Below are positions 5,053-44,100 of a stretch of DNA of 64,000 nt, in pieces (the stretch's first letter is position 1; each line of letters begins with the position of its first letter). Both the position numbers and the translations under genes were made by a program. The stretch covers positions 5,457 to 69,456 of the forward strand of contig NIVC01003923.1 of assembly GCA_002269645.1 (NCBI GenBank), written 5' to 3'. The stretch is from Macrostomum lignano (taxonomy: Eukaryota). Below the pieces are notes generated by a model, which was not told where the DNA came from, made no database searches, and saw nothing but the letters and a program-made list of their open reading frames with translations.

Positions 5053-8000
5053 AACTCTCCTCTGAATCCCTGGAGGCAGCGAGATTGTAATCGGCTCTTT
5101 GATGAAGGCAAATATTTGCGCGGCGGAATTGCAAATGTGCCGCTCGGGTTTCGGGGGGGGGGCAATCGCGGGGTCCGCCAGGAGGGCAGGGGAGCGGACA
5201 GGCCCAGACAGACGCCCCAGAGCGATAGCTCAGGAGTTCAAAGTCTTTCGAGAGTCGGCGAACGAAAACTGACCTCGGGCAATTAGATAGTTGTGGACAA
5301 AATACGCGAAATTCGATTCTTTCAAATTCGCGACTTAATCCGCTTATTAACAGGGAGTTGAGCAGCTGCTCAAGCAGATTCTGGAGACAACCCTGAGCCA
5401 GCCATACATTGGCGAGCACGTGCCAGAGGCTTGGCTTAACTTTGAGAAGGCGATTATCAGGTAAGTGGCTAATTGGCGAGTGCTATTTCTGACCGTCATG
5501 TCCTCCGAATGAAAAGCACACATTTTTCATCCTTCAGCAACCGGAGCTCGAACAGTCTGCTCAAGTGGAGCGAAGTGATGCAGCTTGGCAAGAAGACTGG
5601 AATTTACGGCGAAGAGGTGCAATTTTATGCTTGCTTGAACTGCGGAATTAGCAGCAGGATTAACAGCAGGATTAGCAGCAGGATTAACAGCAGGGTTAGC
5701 AGCAGGATTAACAGCGGTATTAACAGCAGGATTAACAGCAGGATTAACAGCGGAATTAGCAGCAGGATTAACAGCGGTATTAACAGCCGGATTAACAGCA
5801 GGATTAACAGCGGAATTAGCAGCAGGATTAACAGCCGGATTAGCAGCAGGATTAACAGCAGGGTTAGCAGCAGGATTAACAGCAGGGTTAGCAGCAGGAT
5901 TAACAGCAGGGTTAGCAGCAGGATTAACAGCAGGATTAGCAGCAGGATTAACAGCAGGGTTAGCAGCAGGATTAACAGCAGGGTTAGCAGCAGGATTAAC
6001 AGCAAGGTTAGCAGCAGGATTAACAGCAGGGTTAGCAGCAGGATTAACAGCAGGATTAACAGCAGGATTAACAGCAGGGTTAGCAGCAGGATTAACAGCA
6101 GGATTAGCAGCAGGATTAACAGCCGGATTAACAGCCGGATTAACAGCAGGATTAACAGCAGGGTTAGCAGCAGGATTAGCAGCAGGATTAACAGCCGGAT
6201 TAACAGCCGGATTAACAGCAGGATTAACAGCAGGGTTAGCAGCAGGATTAACAGCAGGATTAGCAGCAGGATTAACAGCAGGGTTAGCAGCAGGATTAAC
6301 AGCAGGGTTAGCAGCAGGATTAACAGCGGTATTAACAGCAGGATTAACAGCAGGATTAACAGTGGGATTGATAGCGGGATTAATTCTTCCAATTCCGGCA
6401 GGTGCCGCAAGCTGTGCAGTTTCTTCACGACATGGGCAGTCTGCAGCACTTCGACTCTGACTTGCTGTACGACATTGTCATCATCAATCCGCAGTGGCTG
6501 GTGGACGTGATGGCTTGCGTTGTCACCGTGCACAATCACGTGATCAAGGTAGGCTGGTGCGCGTATCTTCAATGGGGTGGGGGGGGGAAGATGAGGCCTG
6601 CCACAAATCAAGGGAAAGAGTAGTCGTTGGCCACTGAGCACAAAACCGAGTAGCTGTTGACCATTGAGCACAAAGTCGAGTAGCTGTTGAGCCTTGAGCA
6701 CAAAGTCGAGTAGCTGTTGACCATTGAGCACAAAACCGAGTAGCTGTTGAGCCTTGAGCACAAAACCGAGTAGCTGTTGTCCATTGAGCACAAAGTCGAG
6801 TAGCTGTTGACCATTGAGCACAAAACCGAGTAGCTGTTGTCCATTGAGCACAAAGTCGAGTAGCTGTTGACCATTGAGCACAAAGTCGAGTAGCTGTTGA
6901 CCATTGAGCACAAAGTCGAGTAGCTGTTGACCATTGAGCACAAAACCGAGTAGCTGTTGACCATTGAGCACAAAGTCGAGTAGCTGTTGACCATTGAGCA
7001 CAAAGTCGAGTAGCTGTTGACCATTGAGCACAAAACCGAGTAGCTGTTGACCATTGAGCACAAAGTCGAGTAGCTGTTGACCATTGAGCACAAAACCGAG
7101 TAGCTGTTGACCATTGAGCACAAAACCGAGTAGCTGTTGACCATTGAGCACAAAGTCGAGTAGCTGTTGACACTCACTCAGGATGCACAGCGGCCCTGAT
7201 TGTCTGATGGTCGGGCGTGTACGTAAATACTGTGAATTTCACGAAAAGCATTTTGTTCATGGGATCGAACTTCTATAAGTTGGGGCGGTCTTGAGGCACC
7301 TGTTCAGCATAGAGGAAATTGAGTCTGGGAGCGGCGACCGTGGGAACAGGGAGCAGCGCGGGCTCCCCAACTGGATGTCAAACAAACCTCCGGACTTTCT
7401 CCTCTCATTTCACTTCCCTCATCCGTGCCCTCCCTGCCTTTTTAGTCCCGTAAGCGCTTTGGTTTTGGAATTTCAAGCAGCTGGCCTGATGTTGATTCCA
7501 GGTTAGACTCAAGGAAGCGGCGCCCTTCTCCCCCCAAGCCCCTTTCTCCTGTCATATCCGTTCTCCGGATTTCTGAACTCAGAAGACTGCGTTTGAATTG
7601 ACGCGAAAAGCGCCACTCCAAGCGAATTCTCCAATTCTCTCCCTTATTCAAACAGTATTGGAATATCAGTGGAGAAAAGTGCGTTTCGCCTTTGGTAACA
7701 TCTTCCCACTACAGGCGAGAAATGAGCTGGCCCAATTGGGCCAGATGTGCAACCGACAGCTCAGCCGCAGCTATTGCGCGGCGCATCTGAAAGCTGCATA
7801 CGGTTGTTCAGTCAAAGGACTGGGGGTTGCCGCACACACCTTATGTAATGCTGGCACCCATTTTACAGTTGGGTGAACTGAAGCAATGCAGAGTAAAAGT
7901 GTCTTGCTCAAGGACACAAATTGTTCCAATGGGATCGGGAATCGAACCCCCAACCTTCTAGTTGCGAGTCCGACGCTCTAACCTCTAGGCTACAGCAATG

Positions 8001-17000: not shown

Positions 17001-20000
17001 ATCCGCAATGCTTTCTGAAGCTAAAAGTACAAAAACTTTTCCCCAATCGCAGTACGTGGCATCGAAGAACTGCCAGATGGAGTATCGCTTTGCTCACCTG
17101 ACGCTCAACCGGCCCATGGTGATCTGCGTTGTGGGCACCGGCGTGCTGTGGGAGTCCACTGAGGTGAGCGGGGGCGACTGCGGAGTCTGGGGGGGGGCAG
17201 TTGGAACTCGAACGGGAGATAAGGAATGGGAACTGAGGTATGAGATGAGAGCAGAGATGAAGTGAGAAACTTAGCTGAGAGGAGAAATGACATGAAGGTA
17301 GAAACAGGTGAGAGTAAAATGAGATGAAAAGCGGAGGAAACAGGTGAGAGTAAAATGAGATGAAAAGCGGAGGAAACAGGTGAGAGTGAAATGAGATGAA
17401 GGGAGAACAGGTGAGAGTGAAATAAGATGAAGGGAGGAACATGTAAGAGTGAAATTAGATGAAGGGAGGAACATGTAAGAGTGAAATTAGATGAAGGTAG
17501 AAGGAACAGGTGAGAGGAGAAATGAGATGAAGGTAGAAACAGGTGAGAGTGAAATGAGATGAAGGGAGGAGGAACAGGTGAGAGTGAAATGAGAAGGGAG
17601 GAACAGGTGAGAGGAGAAATGAGAAGGGAGGAACAGGTGAGGGGAACAGGTGAGAGGAGAAATGAGAAGGGAGAAACAGGTGAGAGGAGAAATGAGAAGG
17701 GAGAAACAGGTGAGAGGAGAAATGAGAAGGGAGGAACAGGTGAGAGGAGAAATGAGAAGGGAGAAACAGGTGAGAGGAGAAGTGAGAAGGGAGGAACAGG
17801 TGAGAGGAACAGGTGAGAGGAGAAGTGAGAAGGGAGGAACAGGTGAGAGGAACAGGTGAGAGGAGAAGTGAGAAGGGAGGAACAGGTGAGAGGAACAGGT
17901 GAGAGGAGAAGTGAGAGGAGAAATGAGAAGGGAGGAACAGGTGAGGGGAGAAATGAGAAGGGAGGAACAGGTGAGAGGAGAAATGAGAAGGGAGGAACAG
18001 GTGAGGGGAGAAATGAGAAGGGAGGAACAGGTGAGGGGAGAAATGAGAAGGGAGGAACAGGTGAGAGGAGAAATGAGAAGGGAGGAACAGGTGAGAGTGA
18101 AATGAGAAGGGAGGAACAGGTGAGGGGAGAAATGAGAAGGGAGGAACAGGTGAGAGGAGAAATGAGAAGGGAGGAACAGGTGAGAGGAGAAATGAGAAGG
18201 GAGGAGCCAGTGAAAAGTGAAAGGAGTGAGGAAAAGGTGAAATAAGATACAAAGTGGCTGGAAAGAAGGAAAGCGGAAATCGATTCCCAGGACAGTGGAA
18301 ACTATGAAACGAGGTTTTCACTCAGTCCCAGTTCAGGTGGCCCTGCAGTGGGGTCTCGGCCCAGCTTAGCATAAATCTTCTTTCAGCGCATCGCAGCCCG
18401 GCAGCCACCCACACGCAAGCAGCCGGACTGCTTTTGGCTTTGGTCTGACCCTTATGTGAAATTTTTCCTTAACGTGAGATTCGATGCACTTTAATTCGAA
18501 TCCGCTGTTTCATGTTTTTTTATAAATTCTGAAAGCAGTCTTAGATAAATAAACTAAAGAACTTGAAATCTGGTGAGATTGGTATCTAATCTAGAGATAT
18601 TGATATCTAGTCTAGTGAGATTAGCATCTAGTCTAGTGAGATTAGCATCTAGTCTGGTGAGATTGGCATCTAGTCTAGTGAGATTAGCATCTAGTCTAGT
18701 GAGATTGGCATCTAGTCTAGTGAGATTAGGATCTAGTCTAGTGAGATCTAGTCTAGTGAGATTGGTATCGAGTCTAGTGAGATTGGCATCTAGTCTAGTG
18801 AGATTAGCCTCTATTCTAGTGAGATTGGCATCTAGTCTAGTGAGATTAGCCTCTATTCTAGTGAGATTGGCATCTAGTCTAGTGAGATTAGTCTCTATTC
18901 TAGTGAGATTGGCATCTAGTCTAGTGAGATTAGTCTCTATTCTAGTGAGATTGGTATCTAGTCTAGTGAGATTGGTATCTAGTCTAGTGAGATTGGTATC
19001 TAGTCTAGTGAGATTGGTATCTAGTCTAGTGAGATTGGTATCTAGTCTAGTGAGATTGGTATCTAGTCCAGTGAGATTGGTATCTAGTCTAGTGAGATTG
19101 GTATCTAGTCTAGTGAGATTGGCATCTAGTCTAGTGAGATTGGTATCTAGTCTAGTGAGATTGGTATCTAGTCTAGTAAGATTGGTATCTAGTCTAGTGA
19201 GATTGGTATCTGTGGTGTCTCAACAGACTATCACGGGAAACACGAGTACGTGGCAGGTAAGACTTTTGCCGGAAAAAAAAGGTACGAGCTCCACTTAGGG
19301 CAACCCGCGCTTATATTTGATATTTAACAGTAAATTGTTACACGATCGATAAATTCAACCGCCAAAATGTCACGTGATTAAAAATACGTTTCACAATACA
19401 ATATACGAATTATTTATTAACTGCATTACTTAAAGTAGAGTAGTAAGAAAAAGTAAGAAAAGGTTAGTTAGACGAACGGCCCTTTTACGGGCTCCTTGTC
19501 ACGACACAACAGTATCTAGTCTAGTGAGATTGGTATCTAGTCTAGTGAGATTGGTATCTAGTCTAGTGAGATTGGTATCTAGTCTAGTGAGATTGGTATC
19601 TAGTCTAGTGAGATTGGTATCTAGTCTAGTGAGATTGGTATCTAGTCTAGTGAGATTGGTATCTAGTCTAGTGAGATTGGTATCTAGTCTAGTGAGATTG
19701 GTATCTAGTCTAGTGAGATTGGTATCTAGTCTAGTGAGATTGGTATCTAGTCTAGTGAGATTGGTATCTAGTCTAGTGAGATTGGTATCTAGTCTAGTGA
19801 GATTGGTATCTAGTCTAGTGAGATTGGTATCTAGTCTAGTGAGATTGGTATCTAGTCTAGTGAGATTGGTATCTAGTCTAGTGAGATTGGTATCTAGTCT
19901 AGTGAGATTGGTATCTAGTCTAGTGAGATTGGTATCTAGTCTAGTGAGATTGGTATCTAGTCTAGTGAGATTGGCATCTAGTCTAGTGAGATTGGTATCT

Positions 20001-35116: not shown

Positions 35117-38100
35117 ATGACAACTAATAGCTCATCTATTACCCATGCAATTTTTGACATGGATGGACTTCTAATTGGTAAATAAAACACTATTGTATTA
35201 AAAGCTTAGATTAAGCTAATTTTCTATCTGCATACTGTTTCTTCCATTTCAGATTCAAATTCAAGAATTATACCTACTAAAATATAGAACCTAAGCCTAA
35301 TTAATTTTAATTTGCCTTTTAGACACTGAGTCTGTTTATACAGATTGTTACAATAAATTTTGTGCTCAATTTGGCAAGCAATTTACTTGGGAAATCAAGC
35401 AGAAGCAAATGGGAAGGCCACCAAATGAATCTGCAAAAATAATAATTGGTAAGTAATGCAACTTATGCTAGTGCAAGTCACTATTGATAAGTAGCTATAT
35501 CATGTGATTTCTATTTTGTATAATAGCTAAAAAGTATGTTGTCAATGTGATAAAAAGTATTAAAATTGTTTTTATGCATTTAAATGAATAATAAGTCTGT
35601 GACGTTGTCAGTTTAAGGTGGTCCCGAAAAGGGCCGTTGGACTGCTGGTTTTCCATAGTCATTCAACCCTTCAGTTTCACCGCTTCAACTAAACTTTTCC
35701 ATTCGTTTATTGCGACGTTTACTTGTAGTAGTGCCCAACGATTTTGTGGCAATTTATAATTCATTGTATATTTTGCTATCCTCTCTCGCCACCGTATAAA
35801 ATTGGCACGATCGATAATTTTAAGTTCTCTCGCCAGCCAATGAAATCACTCGTGTTCGCGCTACCCCCCTCTGCGCTCTTTTATTAAACCCCCCCCCGCC
35901 TGGCGGCGGGCACTCCACGCTCCCCTCGCTCTCTCTCGCTCCTCTCTCTCCGCTTGTTCCTTGTTTCCTTCCCTGCGGCCTCTTAGCTGTCTTATCTGTT
36001 TGTCTGGCTGCCTCGAGCCTCCTTATTTCTCACCACGGCCCTTCTGTCTGGGCCAGCCTGCTCACACACTTACTTGACTGTTTCACGCCACGACCGACGC
36101 CAACTCACCACTACGTTTCACTGCCTTCACGGTGCTCATAGCCACTGCTCACGTCACGTCGCCATTGGGTCATTCGCCTGCCACTTGACTTCATATCCAA
36201 ATTATATTCAACCCATTGCTGCAGCCGCCAGTGCCCAGAAAGCTATAGTCTGTTTATTGCCAGTAACAACCAAACTTAATACTGATATTAACAATAAAGA
36301 CAACTACGGCAGTTCCTGCCTTTATCGCCAAGTGCTCCGCTACAAAATCCGCTTTACAAGAATTGACTTCAACTTATTTTGGGACTAAAACGGCCCTTTT
36401 AAGGGGTCACCGCATAGCTGGCCGCTACGCCAATAACGTGACATAATTTTGGAGGTACCACCGAGACTCCTACTCAGCACTGCCGGCTCGCAACTAAGTC
36501 AGCACCACCGAGACGCCTACTCAGCACTGCCGGCTCACAACTAAATCAGTGCCATCAAGACTTCTACTCAGCGCTGCCAACTCGTAATCAGTGCCACCGA
36601 GACTCCTGCTCAGCGCTGCCAGCACACAAGCAAGCGCCATCAAGACTTCTGCTCAGCCTTGCCAGCTCGCAACCAAGCGTCAGCGAGATTCTGCTCAGCC
36701 CTGCCAGCTCGCAACCAAGCGTCAGCGAGATTCTGCTCAGCCCTGCCAGCTCGCAACCAAGCGTCAGCGAGATTCTGCTCAGCTCTGCCGGCTCGTGACT
36801 GAGTGCCGGCCTGCCACGTTTCTGCCTGACGGTCCGCAAGGCTGCAAGAGCCTGTGCCACGTCAGGCCCAGGGGTCCTGACTGCCCGGCTGGTCTCCGCT
36901 CGTCGCCGCGAGTCGTCGCTGGTCGTCGCCCTGAGCAACGCGCGCTGTCAACTGCGTTGAGCTCGAGCTTACGCTCTGCCAAGATAGCTCCGCTGCGTGT
37001 GCCAAGCCACGCCAGGTTACGCTGTGCGCTGATTGTTTGTAGGGACTATTGCCTGACAGTTAGTCTGGGTGGTTTGCGTGATAGGACTCTCCCCTATTAT
37101 AGGCTTTTTGCGGTTTGCCCCTGTCAGGCACGTTTTTTGTTAGTAGGACGCAATCTCTCTCGTCTCTCTCGCGTCGTCAACCTCAATTCGTTCTCTCTGG
37201 AACCTTACTCTCACTCGTGGTTGCTCCGTTCGCCTCACTCGGGCTCCTGCCTGAGCTTCATCTCGCACAATGTCCGGCAACGGGGAAGACTTCGGCATGG
37301 CGCCTCCCGAGCCTGTGGCGGACCCAGTCGCCGCACAGGCAGTTAATCCACCAGCCCCAGCCACTGAACCCAGACCCAGCTATGGGCGCCCCATCTGCCC
37401 ACCCGTTAGGTACCGGGCGTGCCAGGTGTCCGGCCTGCTCCAGCTGTAGGGTGGCAAGCATTAGTTTGCTCACGCCCTGGGCAAGGCGTTAAACTACCTC
37501 CTGTGGCCCCTGTTGGCCACGGGTCCCTGTGGCCCCGCTGTTCTCCGCCTTCCGCGCCGGTTCTCTCCTTCCTGCCTGTTGGGCGCTTCCGCGCTGGTCC
37601 TCTCCCCCCTGTCTGTTGGGCGCTTCCGCGCCGGTTCCCTCCCTTCTGCCTGTTTGGCGCGCTGCGCCGTTCTCCGCCTGGCGCGCTGCGCCGTTTCCTG
37701 CCTTGGCGCCCCTGCGCGTCTCCGCCTGGCGCGCTGCGCCGTTCCTGCCTGGCGCGTGGCGCCGTTTCCTGCCTTGGCGCGTAGCGCCGTTCTCTGCCTT
37801 GGCGCGTGGCGCCGTTCCCTGCCGTGGCGCCCTGTCGCCGTTTCCTGCCTTGGCGCGTGGCGCCGTTCTCTGCCTTGGCGCGTGGCGCCGTTCCCTGCCG
37901 TGGCGCCCTGTCGCCGTTTCCTGCCTTGGCGCGTGGCGCCGTTCCTTTGCCTGGCGCGCTGCGCCGTCCTCTGCCTTGGCGCTCTTGCGCCGTTCTCCGC
38001 CTGGCGCGCTGCGCCGTCTCCTGCCTTGGCGCGTTGCGCCTTTCTCCGCCTGGCGCGCTGCGCCGTTTTCTGCCTTGGCGCTCCGCGCCGTCCTGTCTCC

Positions 38101-41100
38101 GCCTTGGGCGCTCCCTTGCCGGTTTCTCCCTCCCGCCTGTTTGGCGCGCCGCGCCGTGTCCCGCCGCCCTTGGCGCTTGTCGTCGTTTGCCCGCAGTTGT
38201 CCGGACTGTGTCTCTGTTTCGTGCCTCTGCTCTGCATCTTTTGCCTCATCCGTCTTGTCACCTTGTTCTGTGCTCCTTGCCTCATCTGTCTTGTCACCTC
38301 TGTTCGTCCTGTCGTTTTTTTTTGTGCGTTTGCGTGCCCCGCGCGCTCCGCTCTGCGCTACTTTTGTAACCAATGTTATTCTCACTGCCATACCTACGTT
38401 GACTTTGATTTTCACCATTCATCTACCTGTATTCATTATTTACTGCAGTCTGTTCCTTTGTTTTCGTATTCCCCTTCAGCCTCTTCACTTCTTTTTGCGA
38501 GCGTGTGAAACATCCCATTTTGTTGCGGTGCCGGACCTCGAAAGCCGGGCGCCATAGGCGTTTTTCAACGCTCTTTCTTTTCTCTGTGCCTGTTTTTTTT
38601 CTTTGCGCCTCTGTGCGCGTGTCTGGGCGGCGCCTGCGTCCCATTGGGGGCGAGCCCATGCGGTCCACCGGGACCGGCCCAGCTGTTGAGCCGTTTGTCG
38701 GCTGGCTGCACCCTGCAGCGGATGCATTCTGCATCGTTTACACACCTTCACTCCACTGCTTCCCTCGCGTGCTAGCTCTTCTTTGTAATGTTCTGTAACT
38801 TTCTGTAATCCTACCACCTGTTCTGTAATTTGACTTCGATTATTCAGCCACTCATAAGCCTGTGGGTTAGTAATCCCTAAAGCCTCCAGTAATCATATGC
38901 TCATACAAACTGACTCAACCCCACTGTAATTCATTCTACTATAATTTCATAAACTGCGGTCACGTTGTGTTTTTCTTGCCGTCACCCCGCGTCTGGGTTT
39001 TTTTTTTCGCCAGAGATAAGGTGCGAAATCGCACCTTGTGCCAAATTTCAAGGTGCGATTTTAAGGCTCAGAGTGCAATTTCTCTTGAGTCTTGTTTAGA
39101 ATGTGAGGGTTTCACAAGAGATATTCAGCCAGACATTCAAAACGATCGTCTGTAACTTTAAACAAAATTGACCCGCTTCAACCATCTTTTTGGCAAATAC
39201 TTACGCAAGTGTTGGGCGTCGAATAAGCTTTAATTTATTAACTGATGTAAAAATCCTTCTGACATACATTGATTTAAAAATTGCTTAGTAACACTCTGAT
39301 TAGAAATCGCTTTACTGTTGACTAAAATTGTTTTGATCGTAGCAGCCTAAAAGCAGATACTGGATTTAAAAATGCTTCGATTTACTCTATACGCATGTCT
39401 CAGCTTTAAAATGACACCTCAGGCGTTGCAAAAGACAGCTTTGATGCTGAGATATTCGACATTAAACAATTGCTTTGCGCAAACTCACATTCAGAAATTT
39501 CACTGATTTTTATCGATATTTGTGCAGTTGCCGTGTCCTTGTTTTTCATCAGAAACTTGTCAAATTCTAGTCATGTCCAGTTTAAACCTGGACTTCTCTT
39601 AAACTGTCTTAAGTATTTGATTTTTAATGATTCCTGCCTTTATATTGCATAGATTGTACCTGAGTCAGTGAGTCTGTGAGTGTACATTTGTACATATGGC
39701 GACCAATCATGACTTTTTCACCGCTTTGCGGTTCAAATAAATATACGAGTGTACGAGAAACATGTTCCAACTGTTATTGAGAGAAATTGACGTCGCGTTT
39801 ATTAACAGTCAGTGGCAATTAATATGAAGCAAATAGTTTATTGTTATGTTTTTACATTTTTTGCGTGGCAATTCTGCTATCCAAATTGGAATGAGGTAAG
39901 CGGTGGGATCTAATGTACTGCTAAGCTTTCCAATCCCTACGGACTACCGTAGCAGTTCTTAACTTTTTTCTGTCTTGACTTCTAGACTCGGAATTCGGAA
40001 CAACCTAAGGAGCCGCATGAAAATATTTAATTGGATAAAGATATTTTCTAAAAACAGCTCAAGTTGTGACACATCTTCTTCTCGCCTCAGTCCATCAACT
40101 GCTGCTCCTTCTGAGACCGAAGCGATCGTGAAAGTAAAACAGATCAGTTTAGATCCCATGGCCATGAATACAACCATTTCAATTGTGAACCTGCTTCGCT
40201 TACGAGTACGAGCACTAGCCTTCCATTTGATGCCATTAGCTCACTTAACTCTGAAATAGTTCAAGGACGGTTCCAAATGTTGAGATCTGACGTAGAAGCA
40301 GTCCAATTTGCGGAAATTTATCAACTGGACTCCATGAATCACTCCAATGAAAGGCGGCGAATAGCTGCAGAATGCGTAAACAAGTTTAAGTGAGTCACAA
40401 AAACCCCATTTACAGTAACTACATACACTTGTACGTTAGCAAGGCTCCATGCGATGGTCTATAAATGGAGAAGTAGACAAGCATCTGAACAAATATTGAA
40501 TAAAAATCAGTGAAGTTTCCGAATGTGAGTTTGAGCAAAGCAATGTTTAGTTTCGAATATCTCAGCATCAAAGCTGTCTTTTGCAACGCCTGAGGTGTCA
40601 TTTTAAAGCTGAGACATGCGTATAGACATGACTAGAATTTGACGAGATTCTGATGAAAAACAAGGACACGGCAACTGCACAAATATCAACAAAAAATCAG
40701 TGAAATTTCTGAATGTGAGTTTGCGCAAAGCAATGCATGTTTAGTGTCAAATATCTCAGCATCAAAGCTGTCTTTTGCAACGCCTGAGGTGTCATTTTAA
40801 AGCTGAGACATGCGTATAGACATGACTAGAGTTTGGCGAGATTCTGATGGGAAACAAGGACACGGCAACTGCACAAATATCAACAAAAAATCAGTGAAAT
40901 TTCTGAATGTGAGTTTGCGCAAAGCAATGCATGTTTAGTGTCAAATATCTCAGCATCAAAGCTGTCTTTTGCAACGCCTGAGGTGTCATTTTAAAGCTGA
41001 GACATGCGTATAGAGTAAATCGAAGCATTTTTAAATCCAGTATCTGCTTTTAGGCTGCTACGATCAAAACAATTTTAGTCAACAGTAAAGCGATTTCTAA

Positions 41101-44100
41101 TCAGAGCTAGTGTTGCTAAGCAATTTTTAAATCAATGTATGTCAGGATTTTTACATCAGTTAATAAATTAAAGCTTATTCGACGCCCAACACTTGCGTAA
41201 GTATTTGCCAAAAAGATGGTTGAAGCGGGTCAATTTTGTTTAAAGTTACAGACAATCATTTTGAATGTCTGTCTTCGGAATGGGTCTCCCTAAAACACGC
41301 CCCGCACCGCCCTGCAGCGCTACACATTAAAACAAATTGGACTATAACTAAAGACACTTCAGAATGCGTTTTCTGTTAAGCTTAAAGTTTTTATTAAATT
41401 TAGTTTTTTTACTTTGAAATATAAAATTCGGTGAACAATAAGTGATATTAATAATAATATTAATAAAATAATAATATCATAATTTAATAATGAAAACGAG
41501 AATATAAAAAAAAATAATATTTAAAAAAATAAATAAAGATATTTATTCCATTACTATTTTAACTTTTCCTTGCAATCAAATAGGCCCCCCTACTGCATTG
41601 ACAAAAAATGTTATAATGTGTAGCGGTTCGGGGCCCGGTGCGGGGCGTGTTTTAGGGAGCCCCTGTCTGAATATCTCTCGTGAAACCCTCACATTGCTCA
41701 CATTTCAGACAACTGGGAATGTATATTTTAATATCTTACATAAGGCTATAGCTATAGGCTATATCGCCTATATGACTTATAGGATTTAAAGAGTTATTTT
41801 GTTTCATATTTTAAGGCAGTGCATAAAAAATAGCTTAAGCATGGTTAAGCCTTTAAAGAAAAATGGTTATAAGACCGCACCTAAACCGCACCTACTTTTT
41901 TAATTTCAGGGTGCGATTTTAAAATTTAGGGTGCATACGCACACTCTACGCACAAAAAAAAAACCCTGCCCCGCGTGTTGGTTTTCTTTTTGCGCGACCC
42001 TATCCTTTTTCGGAAGGGAGGCGGGTGTGACGTTGTCAGTTTAAGGTGGTCCCGAAAAGGGCCGTTGGACTGCTGGTTTTCCATAGTCATTCAACCCTTC
42101 AGTTTCACCGCTTCAACTAAACTTTTCCATTCGTTTATTGCGACGTTTACTTGTAGTAGTGCCCAACGATTTTGTGGCAATTTATAATTCATTGTATATT
42201 TTGCTATCCTCTCTCGCCACCGTATAAAATTGGCACGATCGATAATTTTAAGTTCTCTCGCCAGCCAATGAAATCACTCGTGTTCGCGCTACCCCCCTCT
42301 GCGCTCTTTTATTAAACCCCCCCCCCCGCCTGGCGGCGGGCACTCCACGCTCCCCTCGCTCTCTCTCGCTCCTCTCTCTCCGCTTGTTCCTTGTTTCCTT
42401 CCCTGCGGCCTCTTAGCTGTCTTATCTGTTTGTCTGGCTGCCTCGAGCCTCCTTATTTCTCACCACGGCCCTTCTGTCTGGGCCAGCCTGCTCACACACT
42501 TACTTGACTGTTTCACGCCACGACCGACGCCAACTCACCACTACGTTTCACTGCCTTCACGGTGCTCATAGCCACTGCTCACGTCACGTCGCCATTGGGT
42601 CATTCGCCTGCCACTTGACTTCATATCCAAATTATATTCAACCCATTGCTGCAGCCGCCAGTGCCCAGAAAGCTATAGTCTGTTTATTGCCAGTAACAAC
42701 CAAACTTAATACTGATATTAACAATAAAGACAACTACGGCAGTTCCTGCCTTTATCGCCAAGTGCTCCGCTACAAAATCCGCTTTACAAGAATTGACTTC
42801 AACTTATTTTGGGACTAAAACGGCCCTTTTAAGGGTCACCGCATAGCTGGCCGCTACGCCAATAACGTGACAAGTCAATGTATTAGTAAGTTGTATATAA
42901 ATTAATCAAATGACAAACAAAAAATTCTATATTTGATAATTATTTGTTATACTTGTTAATTAAAAAAGCTATCTTGGATCATAGAAAATATTTAAATGAT
43001 CTTTTCAGACCATCTTGACTTGCCCATCACAGTGGAACAGCATCATGAAATGATCAATACAATGTTGCTAAAGGAGTTTCCCTATAGCAAGATAATGCCA
43101 GGTGAACTTTTAAATATTTTTAAGCTGTTTGAAAATTTAGCAAAGTTAAACTCTTATCTTAATCCCATTGTAGCCACATTTGAAAAACCTAGGCAATGTG
43201 TTTTCCCACAAAATTGTGATTTTTAAGTAAATGGCAGTAGCCATAACTGTCTTAGCATACATAAATGCCTCATCATCTAATTGGAGCTATGTAGATTGTA
43301 GAACCTGTACAAAACTTATATTTCCTAGAAATAAGCGACACACTGATTAGTTCCAGAAGCTATCCATCAAAACCCCAAGGCTATGGGCTCTAATAGGGCT
43401 AATCTACTAAGATCCCCATCTACACAGGTGTGAACCGTCTCCTGGAGCACCTGTGGCAGCACCGGGTGCCCATGTGCATCGCCACCGGGTCGGACCAGAC
43501 TGGCTTTGACGTCAAAGTTGGCGGCCGGCCGGAGTTGCTGAGCAAATTCCATCACTGGGTGCTGGCTGGCAGCGACCCAGCTGTGGGCCATGGCAAGCCG
43601 GCGCCCGACTGCTTCCTGGTGGCTGCTGACAGGTTCGACCCGACCCCTATTGACCCGGCCAGAGTGCTGGTCTTCGAGGACGCGCCAAATGGCGTTGAGG
43701 CCGCCCTGGCCGCTGGCATGAAGGTGGGTCCTCGGCGTGGCCTTCCGGGTCAAACAGATCTTGGTTTAAATTGGCTACACTCATGTTGCATCAAGTCAGG
43801 TCAGATCTAGTCAAAGTCAAATCAACTCAATCAATATCAGGGAAAGTCAGGTCAGGTCAAGTCGGGTCAGGTCAGGTATGTCAGGAGTCAGTTCAGTCGA
43901 GGTCAAGGTCAGGTTAAGTCGGAACCAGCCAGCTAAGAACGGGTCATGTCAATTCAAATCAGATTCGGTCGTCAAGTCACGACCGAGGTCGGGTTCTAAT
44001 TATGATTTCGTTTTAAGACGTTTGTAGCAACCAATCGTTACTTTTTACTTTAAACTGTTCCTTCCTTTTTATATTACTTTGACTAGTAGCAAGTATCGTT

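Follow-up and report, generated by a model that had tools for sequence, protein, structure and literature searches.

We analysed 64,000 nucleotides of Macrostomum lignano DNA (positions 5,457 to 69,456 of contig NIVC01003923.1, assembly GCA_002269645.1; hereafter the window), in which a Ty3/Gypsy-type retroelement occupies positions 35598-42872. Each of its two long terminal repeats (LTRs) carries two short hairpins that resemble the stem-loop at the 3' end of replication-dependent histone mRNAs, one near either end of the LTR and both facing outward, around a predicted promoter (Table 1). The original prediction had located these four motifs, had noted that the two motifs of an LTR form an inverted repeat, and had proposed that sense and antisense LTR RNAs mature at hairpins of the kind bound by SLBP. 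All four motifs were confirmed, in position and strand, as was the 22-nt inverted repeat (82% identity). Here, we argue that the hairpins are copies of the host's own histone stem-loop, acquired by one Gypsy family, and that they may serve as back-up terminators of LTR transcription in both directions.

Kinship with the host's histone 3' ends

The H2A, H2B, H3 and H4 genes of this host end in AAAAC-GGCCCT-TTTC-AGGGCC-ACC. The LTR motifs match these ends in the A/C-rich 5' flank (AAAAC and CCAAC), in the 5' arm and in the U-loop, bearing out the proposed kinship with the histone 3' element. An SLBP domain with the TPNK motif is encoded in the genome; its exon is found nine times with identical scores, each time flanked by minisatellites (L231-L238), which may reflect true copies or assembly redundancy. 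Scoring with the Rfam Histone3 covariance model (RF00032) was less kind to the original prediction. In a 1-kb search the sense and antisense motifs scored 20.6 bits (E 0.0072) and 19.0 bits (E 0.03), both under the gathering score of 34 bits, which was reached by no match in the whole window; the highest-scoring LTR variant, in L197, attains 28.9 bits. Among the 30 best Histone3 matches, 12 lie just behind H2A, H2B, H3 or H4 open reading frames (ORFs), two are situated upstream of H3, and for the other 16 there is no histone ORF close by. Folding of the LTR hairpins showed no stability in excess of shuffled sequences (z of -0.14 and -0.56). A further copy of the motif core, with one mismatch, lies at 19474-19486 (+) of the window. 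A dispersed repeat of about 130 nt, not close to a histone gene, carries a perfect stem-loop above the Rfam cut-off (L031, L035, L056 at about 1490-1610, and L191).

The original prediction had seen no histone downstream element (HDE), which belongs 10-20 nt after the stem, and none was found: a downstream word fitted on the host ends themselves occurs in 23 of 24 host ends and in 0/19 sense and 0/7 antisense LTR flanks (distinct sequences). A search for U7 snRNA (RF00066) gave no match, this being a weak test in which 65 of about 171,000 candidates were scored. The hairpins, moreover, sit in non-coding LTR sequence and not shortly after a histone stop codon. Judged by their sequence, the LTR hairpins are degenerate copies of the host histone stem-loop and not chance resemblances; they are not members of the canonical histone 3' end, from which they depart in score, downstream element and position. 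Outside the hairpin, the LTR has no similarity to 18 histone loci beyond AT-rich matches of 23-25 nt, and we therefore reject the idea that an entire divergent pair of histone genes was captured.

Table 1. Features of the retroelement and its LTRs (window coordinates)
Feature	Position	Strand	Remarks
5' LTR	35598..36443	+	846 nt, TG...CA
3' LTR	42026..42872	+	847 nt, TG...CA
Antisense histone-like hairpin, 5' LTR	35620..35635	-	C.A at pair 3, U.G at pair 6
Sense histone-like hairpin, 5' LTR	36392..36408	+	one extra G
Antisense histone-like hairpin, 3' LTR	42048..42063	-	faces element body; Histone3 19.0 bits
Sense histone-like hairpin, 3' LTR	42822..42837	+	G.U at pair 2; Histone3 20.6 bits
AATAAA, predicted polyA signal	42723..42728 (5' LTR 36293-36298)	+	99 nt before sense hairpin
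AATAAA, predicted polyA signal	42134..42139 (5' LTR 35706-35711)	-	about 70 nt before antisense hairpin
Predicted sense promoter	42265..42315	+	CCAAT 42265-42269, TATA-like TTTATTAA 42308-42315
Opposed CCAAT box	42229..42233	-	ATTGG on +; poorly conserved
Primer-binding-site-like stretch	36450..36466	+	predicted; TGG start; presumably tRNA-Gln
Polypurine tract	42012..42025	+	
Internal region	36444..42025	+	non-coding, lacks gag-pol of coding relatives
Nested inverted-repeat element	38993..41968	unassigned	8-bp duplication CCCCGCGT
Target duplication AGTC	35594-35597 and 42873-42876		4 bp, flanks element

Conservation among LTR subfamilies

We anchored 72 distinct LTRs from fetched loci on their first 19 bases and clustered them at 90%, which gave 23 subfamilies. 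The antisense motif is present in all 23 and the sense motif in 21, and the outward-facing layout that had been described for the window copy is likewise kept in 21. The extra G of the 5' LTR sense hairpin occurs in 1/72 sequences and is private to the window copy. Over 18 distinct rows the sense stem is 98.1% paired, all changes being one-sided, with pair 2 a G.U in 14 rows and a G-C in four; L197 and L173 have perfect sense stems. The antisense stem is 80.2% paired (16 distinct rows), with pair 3 unpaired and pair 2 a G-C in all 16, and an extra base gives a 5-nt loop in 13/23 copies. In the available portion of one source (10.64898/2026.10.14.759114), the positions diagnostic of the histone stem-loop are the G-C at pair 2 and the U at loop position 3. 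U3 is invariant in both alignments while the other loop positions vary. Across subfamilies, the ACC that follows the sense stem has not been kept, and the spacer from the sense motif to the LTR 3' end varies.

The AATAAA that the original prediction had placed about 100 nt ahead of the sense hairpin is a conserved feature, being found 98-138 nt upstream in 18 of the 21 hairpin-bearing subfamilies; a minus-strand AATAAA lies within the first 150 nt of the LTR in 19/23. The hairpins stand downstream of kept AATAAA words and lack the downstream element. As for the opposed CCAAT boxes, both words are present in the window; they are not jointly conserved, the sense CCAAT being found in 22/23 subfamilies and the opposed one in 8/23 (TATA-like word, 19/23).

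The motif genome-wide and at histone loci

The 14-base 5' half of the motif (AAAACGGCCCTTTT) occurs 1,115 times in the genome compared to 18 times for its reversal, and the 3' half 241 times compared to 53 for the control. Of the 1,115 sites, 314 are of the LTR type and about 800 are not. Forty-one fetched loci with a histone ORF contain 114 motif rows, which, within 1.6 kb of a histone ORF, reduce to 7 primary contexts and 25 accessory ones. Twenty-three of the 25 distinct accessory copies point away from the histone promoter closest to them, 11 lying downstream in sense and 12 upstream in antisense orientation, and one accessory copy sits between two divergent genes. Over the 100,572 bases of histone loci there are 49 motif contexts, compared to 2 for the reversed motif. 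The accessory copies resemble the LTR copies, with the downstream word in 0/25 and full pairing in 6/25. By sequence, the LTR repeats the layout of host histone loci, in which a central promoter is bracketed by degenerate hairpins that face outward and lie beyond the expected RNA ends.

We further inspected 39 non-LTR sites, which include a few true histone ends. Pairs 2 to 6 are kept in 33, 15, 31, 37 and 35 of them, respectively, three pairs or fewer remain in 10/39, and 13/39 have an A at position 14, which in the antisense LTR copy makes the C.A mismatch. Judged from ORFs alone, sense copies lie downstream near genes for eRF1, a MAPKK1-interacting protein and a lectin, and antisense copies lie inside Der1-like and Ras-family genes. 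No non-coding RNA genes adjoin the non-LTR copies in 20 loci, and no exact match to the perfect host motif turned up in viral contigs.

Two other kinds of repeat deserve mention. Tandem arrays of 3 to 9 degenerate motif copies, all in one orientation, are found at L205-L209, L273, L278 and L221. In a set of internally deleted DNA transposons, which we take to be Merlin-like (L346, L351-L354, L356, L357), a perfect or near-perfect stem-loop stands just before the right terminal repeat of about 105 bp; it is missing in 8 of 15 examined relatives, mostly longer ones.

Structure of the element and gain of the hairpins

The window copy is a non-autonomous Ty3/Gypsy derivative, with TG...CA LTRs, a target duplication, a putative primer site and a polypurine tract. 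Its LTRs align to each other over 845 identical positions, with no mismatch and 3 gap positions. The terminal repeat of the LTR is a separate 9-nt TGTGACGTT/AACGTGACA, distinct from the hairpin motifs, and the LTR 5' end occurs 542 times genome-wide. The nested insertion, which has CAGGG-type ends and is missing from the sibling copy L067, itself contains a pair of long inverted arms (39127-39577 and 40500-41274) as well as tandem repeats of 194 nt. Adjoining the element, an ORF at 43403-43810 (+) presumably represents an exon of a HAD-family phosphatase, to judge from its translation.

Coding relatives whose LTRs are 96% identical (L061, L062) encode a Gag with a zinc knuckle followed by protease, reverse transcriptase (RT), RNase H and integrase. 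They also have a cold-shock domain (PF00313; 30 bits, cut-off 27), which lies between zinc knuckle and protease (as in L061:2775-5600 (+)) and is carried by a Gypsy clade of at least 8 families. Our literature search found no description of a cold-shock domain at this place in Gypsy elements, and a search of proteins of similar length for relatives of the cold-shock/protease piece, itself uninformative, returned none at E 0.001. A minus-strand ORF in L062, considered as an antisense protein expressed from the 3' LTR, is probably spurious; it has no Pfam match, is likewise unmatched in sister families and has stops in diverged copies. Assembled contigs of four runs, guessed to be RNA, cover LTR sequence, with RNA ends and strand unreadable there.

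We examined both ends of 30 other Gypsy elements, which yielded 23 LTR pairs (six elements had none and one had a tandem repeat). Within two mismatches, the 13-base core of the motif was found in 0/15 LTRs of the cold-shock sister families and 0/8 outgroup LTRs, even though the RTs of the nearest sister families are 87-90% identical. The hairpins were therefore gained by one Gypsy family, whose LTRs are also longer (756-871 nt, compared to 379-629 nt in the sisters). A link of the motif to the cold-shock domain is ruled out, since the sisters have the domain without the motif. Elsewhere, a distant Gypsy-type element (L200:5817 (+), L290:1869, L292:1584), for which no LTR pair was found, carries a perfect histone 3' cassette in antisense about 550 nt after its integrase, with upstream GAACG, a perfect stem, ACCAC and downstream TGATGT.

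Discussion

What might such hairpins do for a retroelement? The reading that we prefer, in which we place a little less than even confidence, is that they work in nascent RNA as back-up terminators, probably recognised by SLBP, which limit LTR transcription both ways. RNA would start near the CCAAT/TATA-like block, and the sense RNA would be polyadenylated after the AATAAA at 42723, so that the sense hairpin would fall in U5; a polymerase running past the polyA site would then meet the hairpin and be released. In the other direction, divergent transcripts would be cut short by the antisense hairpin after some 100-200 nt. At the 3' LTR this hairpin would keep antisense RNA from the element body, and thereby lessen double-stranded RNA and silencing. 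The weakened stem and the missing downstream element may let genomic RNA read through the sense copy of the 5' LTR. In a planarian, PIWI-bound piRNAs are derived from stem-loop histone RNAs and from a Ty3-like transcript (PMC10954484, from the part of that paper that was accessible). By analogy, such piRNA sourcing makes the avoidance of aberrant RNA plausible and mature histone-like ends costly. We would extend this proposal tentatively, and with the odds against it, to the genome at large: a stripped-down histone stem-loop without the U7 element may be an SLBP-read terminator on either side of strong promoters, of which a pair was captured by a Gypsy family to silence its own antisense transcription and evade RNA surveillance.

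Several observations weigh against back-up termination. The p value of 1e-5 for the orientation at histone loci overstates the case, because the 25 accessory copies are tandem or paralogous and so not independent. Sense copies lie between apparent exons of a kinase gene (L278) and an antistasin gene (L275), where a strong terminator would cut the host gene, and AATAAA is not clearly enriched upstream of non-LTR copies (10/39, compared to 5, 7 and 5 in three controls). Within the LTRs, two of the 23 subfamilies have no sense motif, G.U replaces the diagnostic G-C in most sense copies, and the predicted antisense stem reaches -4.2 kcal/mol compared to -11.4 for host H4. The conservation of the motifs does not exceed that of several other LTR blocks, and compensatory pairs number 0 in the sense and antisense alignments, a test of low power since the 5' arm hardly varies, as is the case in the canonical element. 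Finally, with no U7 found in the weak test above, the cleaving step is unexplained.

The strongest competitor, which we consider unlikely, is that the motif is read as DNA: an oriented protein site, acting as a boundary, pause or roadblock that brackets strong promoters, which shares or derives from the stem-loop sequence. This would fit a primary sequence kept without covariation, the many host copies with three pairs or fewer, the arrays whose stems are lost (L205-L209, L273) and the tolerance of sense-oriented intronic copies. It fits less well that the conserved half is the half bound by SLBP, that pairs 2, 4, 5 and 6 persist in most non-LTR sites, and that orientation follows the two directions of transcription from histone promoters; nor was a candidate DNA-binding protein identified.

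Two further accounts are improbable. According to the original prediction, the hairpins form the non-polyadenylated ends of LTR RNAs in both orientations, which so gain the handling of histone mRNAs, with its S-phase or germline control. The histone-like flank, arm and loop, the SLBP gene, the sense stem kept intact in 21/23 subfamilies and the 19-32 nt left for U5 after the stem are all compatible with this. The sequences nevertheless speak against mature ends of this kind: there is no covariation, the compensatory changes that should mark the stems being absent from both, and no host-type downstream element; AATAAA words precede the hairpins on both strands; the ACC is not maintained; pair 2 is mostly a G.U in the sense copies; and the antisense geometry is broken in 13/23 subfamilies. 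The planarian precedent, so far as the accessible text of PMC10954484 goes, would make such ends a cost to a transposon.

It is similarly doubtful that the pair is a neutral relic, in which the host motif was caught once, was copied in inverted form to the other LTR end and has persisted through youth or slowly mutating ends. Such persistence would account for LTR ends and several inner blocks being equally conserved, for the loss of the sense copy in two subfamilies and for the other repeats that acquired the hairpin without obvious use. It sits poorly with the survival of the core in subfamilies 53-76% identical to the window LTR, where both sides of the sense copy have been replaced, and with changes that preserve pairing.

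A role in RNA circularisation is less credible again. Here, the sense copy, which lies in U5 by the primer site, would pair with the complement of the antisense copy, which lies in U3 by the polypurine tract, and aid reverse transcription, as cyclization sequences exist in Ty1 and Ty3 (PMC11381356, as far as its available text goes). The predicted duplex amounts to -29 to -46 kcal/mol in the 21 subfamilies having both motifs, and L259 alters both partners at one position, a single double change. An uncompensated mismatch in the 12-nt core in 6 of these 21 subfamilies argues the other way, as do sister families without such a duplex (z no lower than -1.4), and the match to the host motif would be left unexplained. 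The fallback of the original prediction, an integrase attachment or primer-related terminal inverted motif, suits the location within 60 nt of both LTR ends and is very improbable, given the separate 9-nt terminal repeat, the varying spacer to the 3' end and the closely related sisters that have the same ends and primer site without the motif.

If back-up termination by the hairpins is correct, SLBP would take part more widely in transcription termination, that of divergent transcripts included, given about 800 non-LTR copies and pairs in more than 500 LTRs, and a retrotransposon would be borrowing SLBP-type termination from its host. Should the motif prove to be a DNA site, it would still be something new, namely a boundary word that is orientation-specific and has the sequence of the histone hairpin. 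In animals, replication-dependent histone mRNAs are regarded as the only ones marked by the histone stem-loop (PMC10388802, in the portion available). Our search found no report of LTRs that carry histone stem-loops, or of such stem-loops acting as accessory terminators, in the literature within view, which did not extend to subscription journals and preprint supplements.

Comparison with known systems

Against other Ty3/Gypsy elements, the coding relatives are alike in the Gag zinc knuckle and the order of pol, and the element in its 4-bp duplication, primer site and polypurine tract; the family differs by the cold-shock domain before the protease, by LTRs about twice the length of its sisters' and by histone-type hairpins at both LTR ends. 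At divergent promoters, polyA signals terminate the upstream antisense RNAs known as PROMPTs. The proposed LTR signal is similar in being strand-specific and in shortening divergent transcription, and differs in being a histone-type hairpin and not AATAAA alone. With the Histone3 element of the SLBP/U7 pathway, the LTR copies share the A/C-rich flank, the GGCCCT arm, the U-rich loop with its invariant U3 and, in the sense copy, a 6-bp stem, the 5' half being identical to that of this host's histone ends. They differ in having no histone ORF ahead, in scoring below the Rfam cut-off without a downstream element, in the G.U at pair 2 (sense) or the C.A and often 5-nt loop (antisense), and in being paired, outward-facing and placed after AATAAA.

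The CYC5/CYC3 sequences of Ty1 and the end-to-end pairing of Ty3 likewise involve complementary ends of genomic RNA (PMC11381356, available text), whereas the complementarity described here arises because a single host motif is present twice; it shows little covariation, and the sister families do not have it. The nearest LTR precedent that we found is human HERV1/LTR12, whose HDE-like motifs are bound by U7 snRNA and whose U7-pairing element is used by the host to repress NF-Y-driven transcription (PMC11417402, as given in the accessible part of that paper). There, too, part of the signal for histone 3' ends lies in an LTR, close to CCAAT boxes; in LTR12, on the same partial text, that part is the U7-pairing half, whereas the LTRs of the M. 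lignano family carry the stem-loop half at both ends and lack the U7 element.

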